64,000 nucleotides of DNA from Eledone cirrhosa. Taxonomy: Eukaryota. Location: positions 96,720,001 to 96,784,000 of the forward strand of contig OZ024740.1 in assembly GCA_964016885.1 (NCBI GenBank), in the 5' to 3' direction. The notes under the pieces are model-generated. The model was given only the letters and a program-made list of their open reading frames with translations. It had not been told where the DNA came from and did no database searches. The translations under genes and the position numbers were made by a program. Shown one piece after another: positions 18,312 to 61,407 of the stretch. Numbering within the stretch: position 1 is the stretch's first letter; the number at the start of each line of letters is the position of its first letter.

Positions 18312-19030
18312 AAGGAACGCTGTACTAGTTTCAAGCTTATTAGCTATCGTCAGCGACGAATACCTTCCTGCCAGATTGTTGAACGTATATGCTTACCTAA
18401 TACGGGATGTTTGTTTACAAACACACCGAGCATTATAATAAATGTTCGGTGAATCCATACGTACATATATATATGTGTGCATGTATGTATATATATATAT
18501 ATACTACTGTACGTCTGTATACATATATGTATGTACGTGTACATGCTTATATTTAAGTAACAGCCGTACTAAGAGTGGGAAATGAAATTTCGTTTCATTT
18601 TTTTCGTTTATCGTTTTCGGTGCACCCGGCCGATTAACCCACTCGATATGCAAATTGGGCTACTCAGCCGTTAATATGCATAAGGTAAGTATATACGTTC
18701 AACAATCTGGCAGAAAGGTATACGTTGCTGATGATAGCTAATAAGCTTGAAACTTGTACAGCGTTCCTTTGTCAGTGTTGAACAAACGAGCAACGATGGT
18801 TGCTAGACACTATGGCTTAATACGGGATGTTTGTTTACAAACACACCGAGCATTATAATAAATGTTCGCTGAATCCATACGTACATATATATGTGTGTGT
18901 GCATGTGTGTATTTATATATACATAATACTGTACCTCTGTATGCATATATGTATGTACGTGTACATACTTATATTTAAGTAACAGCCGTACTAAGAGTGG
19001 GAAATGAAATTTCGTTTCATTTTTTCCGTT
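18312..19030 (+). mobile_element. Family A retrozyme-like element, diverged copy (~420 bp period, ~1.5 units, 5' inverted segment)
   Basis: tacgggatgtttgtttacaa at 18401 and 18821. Homologous to the 466 bp unit. 18312-18398 is an inverted piece containing the HHR. Ends in a TA tract. Confidence 0.85.
18722..18765 (+). ncRNA. Type I hammerhead ribozyme (family A)
   Basis: acgttg-CUGAUGA-t agc taataa gct t-GAAAC-tt-GUA-cagcgt. Stem I differs from the 44-54 kb copies (acggtg/catcgt) but still pairs. Confidence 0.8.
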
Positions 19031-21475
19031 TATATATATATACATATAAGAAATTAGCAATAGAAAGGTTCGTCGTATTTTTTACTGCAGAAATGTTAGC
19101 CTGATACTGTGGTTTAGAACCCCCAGAGGAATGGAAAAAGATCAGTATCGACGTTTTAAATCCAACTATCTGTTTAAAGATCCTTTATACAAAAAATTAT
19201 TTGAGATTTCAACGCCTTGTTCGAATCTCAGCTATGATTGGATGTTACACACATGTATATATATATATATATATATATATATATATATATATATATATAT
19301 ATATATATATATATATATATATATATATATATATATATATATATATATATATATATATATATATATATATATATATATATATATATACGTGTGTGTCTGT
19401 CTCTCTCTCTCTCTGTATGTTTACGTATCACGGTGCAGGAAAGTGTTTATATGCGCATGTGAATCTTTATGTGGCACTTTATGTACCAATAATATAGAAT
19501 CAATCTAATACACATACAATCACATATGCTACCGTACAGAATGAGCCAGAAACACGAGAATATATATCGTTAGATACACTTTACCAAGCGCTTTACTTAA
19601 ACGTACATGGTTGTTATTCCAAAAAACGATCGATTTAAAAGCATGAAATAGAAAGCGTCTAACATTTCGAAAGGTTATCTTATAGCTCAACAAAATAGTC
19701 TACAAATAAACGGCAACTAATAATAGCTTAACATTGAATGTCCTATAAATGTCTGTGAATTTTAAGCTATCGATTTATTGTAGGCAATGAAGAAGATAAT
19801 GAATACATGCCTAAGTGTTTGGTAGATTCAGGAATTCCTGTACAAAGCTCCGAATATGACCATTAGGTTTTGACAGGCTGTTCCGAAAGAAAATATTTTA
19901 GAGGGAATATAGCAAACAGCTCTATTTTACTTATCTATATGTGCATATATTTATACAAAAACACACACGCATACATACATATATATATATATATATATAT
20001 ATATATATATGTGGATGTATACATACTTATATATATGAATATATAAATACATATATAATTATATGTGTATGTATATCTATATGCATATATATACGAATAT
20101 ATAAATACATATATAAATATATATATATGTATGTATGTATATCTATTTGTATATATATATAATATATATATATATATGTGTGTGTATGTATGAATATATA
20201 TGTATATATATATGTATATATATATATATATATATATATATATATATATATATATATATATATATATATATATATATATATATATATATATATTTATGTA
20301 TGTACATATATATATATATATGTATATATGGATGTATATATATATGGATGTATATATATATGGATGTATATATATATGTATGTATATATATGGATGTATA
20401 TATATATATATATATATATATGTATGTATATACAGTGTATGTATGTAGGTTATACATTCAAGAAAATAGGTGTTTCATACTCTTAGTTGAGAAAATACGT
20501 GTCCCCTTCCTTTTCACTCTATATCACCGATCCTGCCAAGTGCACACAAGCTAGCTCATATAGGTATATATATATATATATATATATATATATATATATA
20601 TATAGAGAGAGAGAGAGAGAGAGAGAGAGAGAAATATGAGAGTGTTGAAGTTTACCTGAAGCTTATTGGGATATGGAAAATCGTTTATGTATTGGTGATA
20701 GGGAAAAATAGCTGAAAATACAATTGCCAAAATTTAAAATATTTATTTTAAATAACTTTACCGGTTTCACAGTTTAATGGTATTCAAATCTTCGGTAAGA
20801 TGGAGGGATGTGTATCTATATCACGAGGTGACTCACATCCGATTGGATGGGAATTATATTTCCACTTTCTGCCATAAAAGTGGTTCAGATATTTATCTTT
20901 TTAATATACGACTTTATGGAGTCATATTGATCACATGATTACGCGTATATGATTTTTTTCATATTTCGCGCCAAACTTCGTGTATCAAGTAAATATAAAT
21001 AACATTTGTTCAGTTTTAACCCAAACAATGGTATTTATAAGGATCATAACAGGCCGATTTGCTGTGTTTGTTTTTACGAAATTTTAGACACTAGGGGTTA
21101 GGCCATCTAAGTATGTCTTACTTTGAGAACTGTTATTTGTAAGTAGATGTACTGGAAACCCATCCAACTGTATAGGGTAACCGTTGAACTGGCGTATTAG
21201 GTCATTTTTGTAGTGAATTAAATTGCGTGTATATAAATGTATATATATATACCTGTGCGTGCGTTTTTCAGTGTGTGTGTGTGTATGTGTGTGTTCGTTT
21301 GTGTCTGTGTGGCGGTGAGAGAAGTCATATATATATGTATATATATATATATATATATATATATATATATATATATATATGTGTGTGTGTGTGTGTGTGT
21401 GTGTGTGCGTGTGTGTGTGTATTTATATATGTATTGTATGCACATATATTTACATGTCGTGTTATGGAAACAGGT

Positions 21476-21568
21476 CGACTTTTATTTTATCCTTACGGGA
21501 TCGATAAAATAAAGTACCAGTAATGTACTGGGTATTTGCTGGCCTTGTGCCAAATGTAGAAACAATTA
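21476..21568 (+). mobile_element. SINE 3' fragment
   Basis: atccttacgggatcgataaaataaagtaccagtaatgtactggg...ggccttgtgccaaatgtagaaacaatt. Confidence 0.85.
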
Positions 21569-22670
21569 TATTATATTGCATATTTATACAGTACCTGCAA
21601 TATATGCACTAACAACAGATATAATGCTGTATATATTTAATACAAAATATTACATCCTCTATCGTTTGACGATGATGTTATTTTGGCAAAAGTGTTGCAA
21701 GTATTCTAGCATCAACGGATTTTATACACATACATTTTATGAGTTCGAATTATCTGGACATTTAAAATGACTCTCTGAAAATCAGATAGACAATGGTTTG
21801 GATTAAAATATCAAAGAAGTACCATACCAATTATCTAAATTCCTGCCTAAAATACTGAAATTTTAAATGCTTTGCATATTGATGTTTTGTGGGTAGTACT
21901 TTATCACAATTTACTCTTTAAGCCGATGTCGCCAATCAAATATAACATATTTAAAGTTTCGCTTCCTTTAAACTTTATTATACCCTGTGTGTATATATAC
22001 ATATATACATACATACTTATATATATATATATATATATTTATTTATATATATATGTATATATATATGTATATATATATATGTGTATATATATATATATAT
22101 ATATATATATATATATATATATATATATATATATATATATATATATATATATATATATATATACATACATATATATATAATACAAAGTTTGTTTTATAAA
22201 TATTGACGCAACCAGGAAAGAAGAACTTAACGGTTCAATCAAGATTTTCCAGGAAAACTTGAACCGTTAAGTTCTTCTTTCGTGGTTATGTCAATATTTA
22301 TATAATAAACTGTGTATGTTATCTGGTGAGAGCGTACCAAACTGCTGGTACCCTTGAAATATATATAATAGAATAAATATAGTTTCCATTTATTTAATAT
22401 CATTGTATATATATATATATATATATATATATATATATATATATATATATATATATATATATATATATATATATATATATTTATATATATATATAATATA
22501 ATTGAATAAAAAAGAGAGATGAACATTAATATAAACATACATGTGTTCAAATCGTAAAGACTAGGTTAGCTAGGGTGAAAAAATACTAACTACAGCAATA
22601 TGGTTTGTCAGACTTTTTTTAAGTAGTAAATTAAGAGATATAACAGACCTATATAGGGCAAATGCCTGGT

Positions 22671-59415: not shown

Positions 59416-59522
59416 AAATCCGCCGAGGTTGACTTTGCCTTTCATCCTTACGGGGTCGATAAGATAAAGTACCAGTAATGCACTGGATAATTGCTGGCCT
59501 TGTGCCTAAAATAGAAACAATT
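59416..59522 (+). mobile_element. SINE, 5'-truncated, with target-site duplication
   Basis: ccgccgaggttgactttgcctttcatccttacggggtcgat..., flanked by ttaattaggta(g/t)caaaat on both sides. Confidence 0.88.
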
Positions 59523-60000
59523 AATTAGGTATCAAAATTAGTTAGTTAGTGTAAAAGAGGTGTTCTCATATTTTAAACATTTAAACAATCTTATTAACAG
59601 CCTTCTACGGTGCGAACACGGGAAACTAATTATGGAAGATAGTATACCAAAGCCTGGGAAGGCCAGTCCATGAAGTTTATATGGAAGAACATTAATACAA
59701 TATGCAATTGATATAAGCGTGCGAATTCGATAAATTTCATCCAGAGTAAACTGAACAGAGGAAGAATTCTAACAATTATGCGAAAGCATATCTCAATATG
59801 TAAATTCAAATATATTTACGGAAATGCCTACTCAAATATAAAAAAAAAAATTGTAATTAAATACAATGTAAAAACACCACGTCACTGCAGTATTCCATAA
59901 ATTGTGCACCAAATATATCTAATAACAAGTTGCTATAAAAGGAAAGTGTCGGTGCAGTTAAACTACATCAAAACAGAATTCATGACTCTTATAAAGAATG

Positions 60001-60339
60001 TTATCCCTGGCGTTCCATTAGGAGTTAATCTAAAATTCACACATTTTGTTATTATTCGAAACATATATACATATATAGGCATCGCAAAATTACAATATTA
60101 TTGTGTGAAGTTTATTTCTTTAAATAACACATACTGGTAATATTTTTATTGTAAATATTCCTATTTGCTGACACAATAGGAATAATTACAATAAAAATAT
60201 TACCAGTATGTGTTATTTAAAGAAATAAACTTCACACAATAACATTGTAATTTTGCGATGCCTATATATGTATATATGTTTCGAATAATAACGAAATGTG
60301 TGATTTTTAGATTAACTCCTAATGGAACGCCAGGGATAA
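60001..60339. repeat. Inverted repeat, 165 bp arms with a 9 nt spacer, abutting (TA)n
   Basis: 60001-60165 is the reverse complement of 60175-60339 with few mismatches. Confidence 0.95.
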
Positions 60340-61407
60340 ATTATATATATATATATATATATATCATAAAATATGTCTTTACTAGATATAATATATATTA
60401 TTTCATCTCCCAATTAGTATAATTAACCAGATAAAAAATCAATTAGACCAAGCTATAAGAATAAAGGCTCCTATGAAGAAATCTCCGACAAATAACCGAA
60501 AGCAGCCCCTTCGCGGTGGCTTCAATAGATTATTTATCTAACATTTCGACAGCAATGTAAAAATCGACCAGATATACAGATAACTAAACACAATTAGGTG
60601 TAAAAATGAACTTAGAAGAATTGCGTACATACCTAATTACCTCTACCATGGTTTCATCCGTATTTTAAGACATCCGATAACAAGGAATGTCCAGAGCTTC
60701 GGAATCATCAGGAGCAAGGTCAAAATAAGACATTTAATTTTCAAAAGTGATCGCGCCAAAAATACATTCAAAAATTGCTAAGAATCGTGACGTGGCAGCG
60801 GTCAAGTTAGAAAGGATTACACTATTATATTAATAAATATTTACTCTACGGTTCTTATAAATTTGATTTATATCTATCTTATCGAGACCTCTTTGGATTT
60901 TAGTCCTCACAGTTATTATTATTACTATATATATATATATATATATATATATATATATATATATATGTATGTATGTATCTATGTAAGTATATATATATAT
61001 ATGAAAATATATATATATATATATATATTTTATATTTATAATATTGGCAGAAATAATAACAGAACAGCTGTGGGTGCGTTCTGTTATCATTTTGTGGCAA
61101 TATTATAACAATATGACACTCCCCACGTATATCAATATTTGTTTCGACACAAGATATCATATAACAAATCTTGCAAAACACACACACACACGCATACATA
61201 TATATATATATATATATATATATAAATATATATATATCAAGTAAGTATGTTTTAAAATAGTGACTAGGTTTGAAATTAGAAAATAGAATAGCTTTCACCG
61301 AGTTTTTGACTAAAGGAATTTTAGCCTGATAATGGGGTTTAGAACACTTAGATAAATGGAAAAAGATGAGTATTGACGTACATGGGACATTATATATATA
61401 TATATAA

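Follow-up and report, generated by a model that had tools for sequence, protein, structure and literature searches.

Non-coding repeats of Eledone cirrhosa with a predicted hammerhead end at TA microsatellites in the manner of Penelope-like elements

Retrozymes, Penelope-like elements and the Eledone locus

Metazoan retrozymes that lack long terminal repeats (non-LTR retrozymes) are described as non-coding units of a few hundred nucleotides with one type I hammerhead ribozyme (HHR) each, low GC content and thousands of copies, and they co-occur with Penelope-like elements (PLEs) (PMC7229834; bioRxiv 10.64898/2026.07.22.740005). Mobilisation of retrozymes by PLEs has already been proposed from this co-occurrence and from likeness to the pseudo-LTRs (pLTRs) of PLEs (PMC7229834; bioRxiv 2026.07.22.740005); target site, inverted arm and tail are undescribed in the sections of these reports available to us. 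Here we analysed a stretch of 64,000 nt from Eledone cirrhosa (contig OZ024740.1, positions 96,720,001-96,784,000; genome 3.0 Gb), hereafter referred to as the window, which is very TA-rich, dense in (TA)n tracts, and holds broken PLE open reading frames (ORFs), two arrays of a 466/469-nt unit and numerous inverted repeats. Two non-coding repeat families of the window, A and B, share the published retrozyme traits listed above. They differ from the described cases in that they have PLE-signature junctions, that no pLTR homologue was found for them, and that they are known from sequence alone.

Published work on PLEs describes insertions that contain a truncated copy in inverted orientation, carry a tail at one end and are biased towards TA (PMC8557442, PMC3846280), and the formation of such inverted, tail-bearing insertions was called undefined (PMC8557442). 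In that description, Hydra-clade elements with an endonuclease domain (EN) have partial tandems, an inverted 5'-truncated copy, a tail at one end and (TA)n insertion, as well as an HHR in the pLTR, a length below 3 kb, a DKT motif and a C-terminal EN without CCHH (PMC8557442), a set of traits that the elements studied here appear to share. The tails given there are 30-40 nt long, compared with 35-90 nt here, the sections consulted state no rule of one end site per arm, and A and B differ from these elements in having no ORF. Purified Poseidon PAc protein cuts and extends both strands of an AT-rich target, and its reverse transcriptase (RT) initiates at a pair of neighbouring internal positions, which delimit the tail; the protein is a predicted dimer (PMC11167929). 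These features parallel the model proposed below, but Poseidon belongs to another clade, and an inverted product, coupling of site to strand and a non-autonomous template are not shown in the consulted parts of that study. The non-autonomous Chlamys elements in print (MRC1 and Chlamys-N4; PMC8557442, PMC9977147) are, like A and B as interpreted here, non-coding PLE passengers with head-to-tail copies and microsatellite targets; they have a 3' sequence in common with autonomous partners and mostly lack an HHR, whereas A and B have HHRs and no partner was found for them. Retrozymes, PLE tails, inversions, the TA bias and the PLE-retrozyme proposal are therefore already published separately. A search of mainly the open literature, supplements aside, found no report of retrozymes with PLE tails and inverted arms, or of a one-site-per-arm rule.

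Inverted insertions are also formed by L1 twin priming, in which both target strands prime and the inverted 5' part is joined by microhomology. There, the internal position at which the second primer anneals varies and the two arms are free of overlap, whereas A, B and the PLEs studied here have two fixed, neighbouring putative start sites and arms that cover overlapping sequence.

Paired end sites in families A and B and in coding elements

We called HHRs by a motif scan with stem checks, at motif level and as minimal type I (architecture per the consulted part of PMC4209133), and took copy numbers as exact core-pattern matches across the genome, for which a reversed-pattern control gave 0. 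Family A comprises two subfamilies with units of 466 nt (A1) and ~420 nt (A2), and its 23,644 exact core matches are dispersed, not clustered. Family B has a 444-nt HHR unit and 1,524 exact core matches, and is related to A (local score 103 versus 50 +/- 8, maximum 79, in 200 shuffles). With units of 466/469, ~420 and 444 nt and one type I HHR each, both families agree with the ~150-1000 nt and single HHR of retrozyme units; each core has stems I and II and a palindromic stem III, and no ORF of at least 150 aa was found in the arrays. By these predicted features, A and B are non-LTR retrozymes, that is, non-coding tandem repeats with a putative hammerhead ribozyme. The initial annotation had spoken of non-coding HHR elements in general, which was borne out for A and B as non-coding tandem elements, but several of the short ones are remnants of coding-PLE pLTRs (family F, Neptune). 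Family F is a Neptune pLTR (9 matches), and one link each ties families D and E to Hydra ORFs, with no such link for C, so that the short HHR elements are not all retrozymes. The family letters used here may not equal those of the initial annotation, and ~60 HHR motif groups in 1.1 Mb of loci amount to dozens of distinct type I HHR motif families in this genome.

For family A, the sample took in the loci of the first 100 core matches, which cover the initial 22.5 Mb of C1; for family B it used those of the first 30 core matches, and for Hydra the first 30 + 40 stretches, with 11 stretches chosen for two close matches, a choice that favours two-armed copies but not any S1/S2 combination. Together with flanks and PLE loci it came to 1.43 Mb. 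We define S1 and S2 as the two fixed 3' end sites of a family and the PLE tail as the sequence between them. Counted in nt after the predicted HHR cleavage site, S1 and S2 lie at ~251 and ~310 in A1, at 219 and 275 in A2, and at 142 and 175-180 in B, and the Hydra end sites lie at 35 and 100; the distance from S1 to S2 is 35-90 nt in retrozymes and coding PLEs.

A TA run of at least 8 nt followed the end in 61 of 73 terminal A units, 22 of 31 B units and 58 of 73 Hydra PLE copies (Fisher test for TA enrichment, P = 2e-17, 1e-7 and 2e-15, respectively). TA was present at 545 of 18,552 random positions (2.9%) and behind 15 of 85 free 3' ends of a control short interspersed element (SINE), for which a wider, 20-nt window was allowed. 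None of the 85 SINE ends had an inverted arm, and these copies showed ordinary target duplications. The control SINE thus has the traits of mobilisation by a long interspersed element (LINE), namely a single 3' end with a simple tail, a target duplication and no inverted arm, whereas A and B lack these and instead have two fixed 3' end sites and a one-sided tail in an inverted pair, as expected of PLE-mobilised elements. Within TA tracts themselves, target-site duplications are unreadable.

Two-armed insertions consist of a leftward and a rightward arm that point outward into TA on either side. Across the two-armed insertions of the 1.43 Mb, the arms used one site each, S1 for one arm and S2 for its opposite, in 27/27 cases for A, 11/13 for B and 23/23 for the first Hydra family (Hydra-1). 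After removal of four local duplicates and one doubtful 83-nt call, the counts were 24/24, 10/12 and 22/22 (binomial P = 6e-8, 0.02 and 2e-7). In a prospective test, family A loci were seeded on the S1-TA junction alone, one exact pattern of which occurs 992 times in the genome, compared with 13,511 occurrences of A1 read-through of the S1 site. The first 30 loci, one of which was already in the initial A set, gave an opposite arm ending at S2 in 15 cases and at S1 in none, with 12 that did not resolve and three off locus; the next 40 gave 25 S2 and no S1, with 14 that did not resolve and one dropped. The other arm was thus S2 in 40/40 resolved loci among the 70. A second Hydra family showed S1/S2 pairing in 10/10 loci with both ends visible (by eye, with continuity unchecked), and a full-length Neptune copy (n = 1) had a 37-nt tail on one side only. 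Among 42 A ends with no called partner, 11 faced an arm of the same family, 10 had TA at the 5' end, 19 met other sequence and two lay at an edge. The integration signature that the initial annotation had assigned jointly to PLEs and non-coding HHR elements, a TA target plus an inverted arm, therefore stands genome-wide for A, B and the PLEs, and in a stronger form: the ends are of two kinds, one per arm, across A, B, two Hydra families and one Neptune copy. The tabulation against SINEs that it had called for shows A, B and PLEs enriched for TA flanks and inverted arms.

The clearest example in the window is a nested cluster at 44.3-54.4 kb. Its first A1 insertion follows a (TA)n tract at 44295-44324 and has a 153-nt left arm on the minus strand (44325-44477; outer end S2 at ~310; 100% identical to the forward units) and a plus-strand right arm (44479-47226) of 5.9 identical 466-nt units, with a minimal type I HHR each and its outer end at S1 (~251). 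The first HHR core of this array (44617-44647, plus strand) shows CUGAUGA, a short stem II, GAAA, a palindromic stem III and a 7-bp stem I, and repeats every 466 nt. A (TA)n tract at 47227-47258 separates the array from a Hydra PLE, whose left arm is an inverted pLTR (47259-47649, minus strand, outer end S1), followed on the plus strand by the 5' pLTR (47656-48099, a truncated tandem copy with an HHR motif at 47962-47991 and the tail), a broken Hydra-clade ORF (48250-50334; RWR, DKT, YRDD plus a GIY-YIG-type EN at the C terminus, with stops and frameshifts) and the 3' pLTR (50197-50625, HHR motif at 50494, outer end S2). Beyond the (TA)n tract 3' of this PLE (50626-50659) lies a second A1 insertion with a 57-nt minus-strand left arm ending at S2 (50660-50716) and a plus-strand right arm of ~7.5 units of ~469 nt (50718-54335) that ends at S1 and runs into (TA)43. 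The broken PLE that lies between the two A1 insertions predates their identical units, and the A-PLE-A cluster accordingly points to re-use of TA tracts; the neighbouring broken, older Hydra PLE is not established, from these sequences, as driver of the A arrays.

Both families have octamer-like ATGCAAAT motifs upstream of the HHR (44528-44537 in A, 24330-24400 in B), which in B sit within 33-nt tandem repeats. They are a possible internal promoter element of A and B.

Inner joints, proposed mechanism and alternatives

The inner joints bear on how the two arms arise. Among 21 resolved A joints, eight share 1-9 nt, four overlap by at least 10 nt at a palindrome or microsatellite, two are blunt and seven carry inserts. 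Only 3/21 joints of A and 0/7 of B have their two inner stops no more than 15 nt apart, arms reach several units on both sides, and the arrays run to as many as 8 units with no ORF. The stops at most inner joints are independent, so that in the usual case the inverted arm did not arise as a fold-back copy. What had been described as an inverted terminal segment is indeed inverted, but for the most part represents a second arm with a truncation of its own instead of a folded-back 5' end. Arm pairs free of differences comprise both A pairs of the window and 4/7 A1 pairs. Two general explanations were rejected: L1-type twin priming, which would place the outer end of the inverted arm beside the beginning of the forward arm, seemed to fit 44325-44479 but not most other joints, and a pure fold-back origin of every inverted arm is ruled out for A and B by the unrelated stops, though it stays for a minority.

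Because A and B follow the one-site-per-arm rule of PLEs, their junctions are evidence for mobilisation in trans, and we consider it very probable that a PLE protein with RT and GIY-YIG domains moves both families. The initial annotation had put forward just this, with a (TA)n preference, and the PLE-type junctions in A and B support it at the level of inference. How the arms are made is less certain, but the junctions are probably best explained by priming from two ends, in which the PLE protein nicks both strands of the TA target and copies the RNA from both ends at once. Both strands of a TA microsatellite would be cut by a Penelope-like RT/GIY-YIG protein that makes nicks, and the RNA would sit in a protein dimer whose two RT sites would occupy S1 and S2, respectively, these being the presumed RT starts. 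Each 3'-OH of the nicked strands would prime one cDNA, both cDNAs would either terminate prematurely or continue along tandem units or around a circle, and their ends would be joined head to head through microhomology. Single-armed copies could reflect one primer left unextended, or the loss of one arm. The fresh TA tracts on the flanks would then serve as targets for later insertions, which would explain the nested cluster described above.

We weighed this two-ended priming against a single priming event by the same PLE machinery, after which self-priming or fold-back would yield the inverted arm, and endonuclease resolution of an intermediate the one-sided tail. Palindromes at the inverted joints of rotifer PLEs have led to a proposal of self-priming (PMC3846280), an endonuclease-resolution origin of the tail appears in the consulted part of PMC8557442, and the coinciding stops in 3/21 A and 8/19 Hydra joints, together with fold-backs at 22180, 28301 and 60001, are in its favour. 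However, most joints have unrelated stops with up to several units on both arms, the A joints with coinciding stops lie at internal palindromes, at which annealing of two cDNA ends is possible in any case, and the inverted Hydra arm of the window differs from the adjacent sequence from which a fold-back would have copied it; we regard single priming as unlikely. Less likely still is that A and B derive as solo pLTRs from a PLE missing from the sample, having spread in cis and multiplied locally as satellites, and are not separate RNAs mobilised in trans. Coding-PLE pLTRs do account for several of the short HHR elements (the nine matches of family F), Xenopus retrozymes are said to resemble pLTRs with local amplification under discussion in the available part of bioRxiv 2026.07.22.740005, and the PLE sample is incomplete, as illustrated by the lack of Naiad among the GIY-YIG loci examined. 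Yet the arrays extend unit after unit, up to 8, with no ORF and on both arms, every insertion has its own S1 and S2 ends and joint, no A or B copy lies directly after an EN ORF (0/212), and the 23,644 A cores are dispersed.

Least probable of all, to the point of being largely refuted by the one-site-per-arm counts and the S1-seeded loci, is an origin of the shared pattern from a LINE enzyme, or from fragile TA tracts that underwent repair or recombination, and not from PLE integration. The region is very TA-rich, and the frequencies of TA near SINEs (15/85) and LINE-like copies (6/15) exceed the 2.9% background; but neither breakage nor LINE priming gives a reason for two fixed internal end sites, one per arm. 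SINEs moreover show target duplications and 0/85 inverted arms, and opposite-strand neighbours of A cores are divergent only (among the first 100 A-core matches, neighbours within 1 kb were 30 same-strand, 11 divergent and 0 convergent).

Several observations weigh against two-ended PLE priming and trans mobilisation as a complete account. A LINE-like family with a (TGA)n tail has TA behind the tail in 6/15 copies, two of the 12 two-armed B pairs break the rule, and no usable paralogous empty site was found among 63 insertions to confirm a pre-existing TA target. In Hydra-1, inner stops lie within 15 nt of each other in 8/19 joints, mainly just 5' of the HHR core, and the fold-backs at 22180, 28301 and 60001, with non-canonical outer ends, fit self-priming. 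Some arm pairs differ at sites shared by subfamilies, so that an origin from one RNA is not universal; the two Hydra arms of the window have 34 differences in 365 sites, eight of them shared. The 23-nt insertion of the inverted arm, like other variants in it, recurs elsewhere (the insertion in two other loci) and is absent from its own two direct pLTRs. In PMC11167929, as far as consulted, start-site use is equal between strands and a one-per-arm rule is not reported. Monomer folds were not significant, and an Rfam scan of the window (E <= 0.1) returned microsatellite-driven miRNA noise and no hammerhead. No A/B-like pLTR or tail was found after the EN ORF in 177 and 212 EN-downstream sequences (~35 clusters) of Hydra, Neptune and Poseidon-like families, an incomplete PLE sample, and the A/B-like matches downstream of EN ORFs lie beyond a TA tract. 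Finally, one genome supplies every sampled locus, and A comes mainly from one chromosome. Tail folding gave hairpins with weak z-scores (-2.4 to +0.8).

Direct joints between retrozymes and PLEs were also present, namely A with Hydra EN sequence at two loci and B with Neptune ORFs at three. One chimera between TA tracts (L254:1500-2910) has an A arm that starts at S1 and is continued by a same-sense Hydra EN fragment, to which an arm of a Hydra pLTR that starts at S2 is attached in head-to-head orientation, so that the S1 + S2 pairing is kept. Head-to-head joints across families were seen for A+F, A+G, A+C, Hydra+D, A+Hydra EN and B+Neptune; in 14 of the 16 checked, no partner continued past the far TA tract, and the other two gave weak matches. 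Several pair S1/S1 or S2/S2, and among these joints only L254 obeys the rule; the others may be deletions between neighbours. An inverted local duplication of a head-to-head joint of an A arm and a Hydra EN arm was observed at L084 ~1800-4900 (G000:C1:18487800-18490900).

More speculatively, with a chance that we put somewhat below even, PLE integration could be two-headed in general, a dimer acting on both (TA)n strands and always using S1 + S2. Retrozymes would then mimic this two-site landing pad structurally and not by sequence, and the heads would carry or switch RNAs, giving chimeras such as L254. If so, the long-unexplained inverted and tailed structures of PLEs would be accounted for, and Hydra proteins would become candidate drivers of family A. 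As to the enzyme that moves animal retrozymes, junction anatomy is more direct evidence than co-occurrence or pLTR likeness, and mapping S1 and S2 provides two candidate RT start sites for each retrozyme RNA. The near-absolute one-site-per-arm rule in coding and non-coding families predicts coupled dimer priming from both strands, a prediction within reach of the existing in vitro PLE system, so that both questions are directly testable.

Inverted segments and other elements of the window

The initial annotation had pointed to eleven inverted segments beside microsatellites. All eleven are real and adjoin such a tract or lie within ~50 nt of one; seven are an arm of a two-armed insertion, and the remaining four are atypical. 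The full two-armed pattern with fixed ends is seen at 44325-44477, 47259-47649, 50660-50716 and 4359-4435, the last being the short plus-strand arm, ending at S1, of a B insertion at 3540-4435 whose long minus-strand arm ends at S2 and has a SINE inside. By eye, 56100-56170 also fits: it belongs to a two-armed remnant (56100-56314) of family E, an HHR family that is possibly a Hydra pLTR, with the left arm at the early end site of other E copies and the right arm at the late one. The segment at 55871-56048 is part of family W (55055-56048), which has two divergent HHR-like arms with two different outer ends and a short TA tract between them; the same two ends occur in a second locus. An exception is the B insertion at 23610-24686 (plus strand, three SINE pieces, short minus-strand arm 23610-23676), in which both arms end past S1, the short one being the listed segment (23610-23638).

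Among the atypical segments, 18323-18401 is the minus-strand left arm of a two-armed A2 copy (~420-nt unit; 18323-19030, plus strand, right end S2 in TA) and ends 11 nt past the HHR cleavage site, ~45 nt from an (AG)n tract. Those at 22180-22238 and 28301-28843 are near-perfect fold-backs with outer ends internal to the family, neither S1 nor S2. The former lies in a family E copy with a degenerate HHR (22180-22405; fold-back 22180-22317, non-canonical outer end), and the latter in family C (28301-29761, plus strand), which has a 543-nt fold-back palindrome with a 9-nt spacer, an HHR-like motif at 29568-29623, a late 3' end in TA and no ORF. The inverted-repeat scan placed a 165-nt palindrome beside (TA)n at 60001-60339, for whose arm (60175-60339) no homologue was found in the 1.43 Mb sample, and neither an HHR nor a PLE protein matched it. 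Two further inverted repeats, old and imperfect (70-72%), lie at 16648-17500 and 25964-26144, with neither a homologue in the sample nor an adjoining TA tract.

The PLE at 47259-50625 is organised as pLTR-ORF-pLTR with a 2,532-nt monomer and RWR, DKT, YRDD and a C-terminal EN, and by its motifs appears to fit the Hydra-clade description in the consulted part of PMC8557442. A single ORF with RT followed by a C-terminal GIY-YIG EN and a length below 3 kb are present, with the reading frame broken, as are the HHR in the pLTR, the inverted pLTR, the one-sided tail and the (TA)n target. Among the Hydra motifs, DKT and CxH are present, RWR replaces RWK, Cx5C is present with its first C lost at a frameshift, and CxxC was seen solely in the Hydra copy at 61.4-63.3 kb. 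The window PLE protein is 34-43% identical to 25 unnamed proteins, of which four were scanned and one contained RVT_1, and Pfam gave no match for two ORF pieces of the window. Its core has 733 genome matches, and its nearest relatives are at most 87% identical, one of them with a 722-aa open frame. Another Hydra family has intact 714-aa ORFs, Neptune and Poseidon-like families also occur in the genome, and no Naiad-type element was found among the GIY-YIG loci examined.

A second, more diverged Hydra copy (61403-63303, minus strand) is single-armed and ends at S1 in TA. Further PLE remnants lie at 39700-41652, 54420-55014, 22500-23590 and 345-608. They include another Hydra-like ORF, also with EN, at 40.2-41.1 kb, a fragment of a Hydra EN, and two 3' ends that are HHR-like and belong to other families. 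Judged by eye, the tails in five families (Hydra-1, the second Hydra family, C, D and E) open with a common ACTC...GAGT stem motif (48035-48055, 29690-29730, 39600-39625 and 56228-56250), possibly a Hydra recognition element, and the motif is absent from A and B tails. Three loci (L158, L159 and L160; G000:C1:211.7-212.9 Mb) are near-identical copies of a single Hydra insertion. Two short segments that come from other parts of the element lie at its inner joint, which points to template jumps with duplication afterwards.

In 10 of 95 SINE copies with intact 3' ends, a ~180-nt tRNA-like SINE occupies one AT-rich site of family B, just before S1. Its 5' truncations differ among the B-borne copies (positions 1, 3, 54, 68 and 90), which are located at 3603-3743, 4584-4772 and 23677-24192 in the window and in loci L115, L116, L122, L123 and L156. 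This pattern suggests repeated insertion at one site, together with carriage by the retrozyme.

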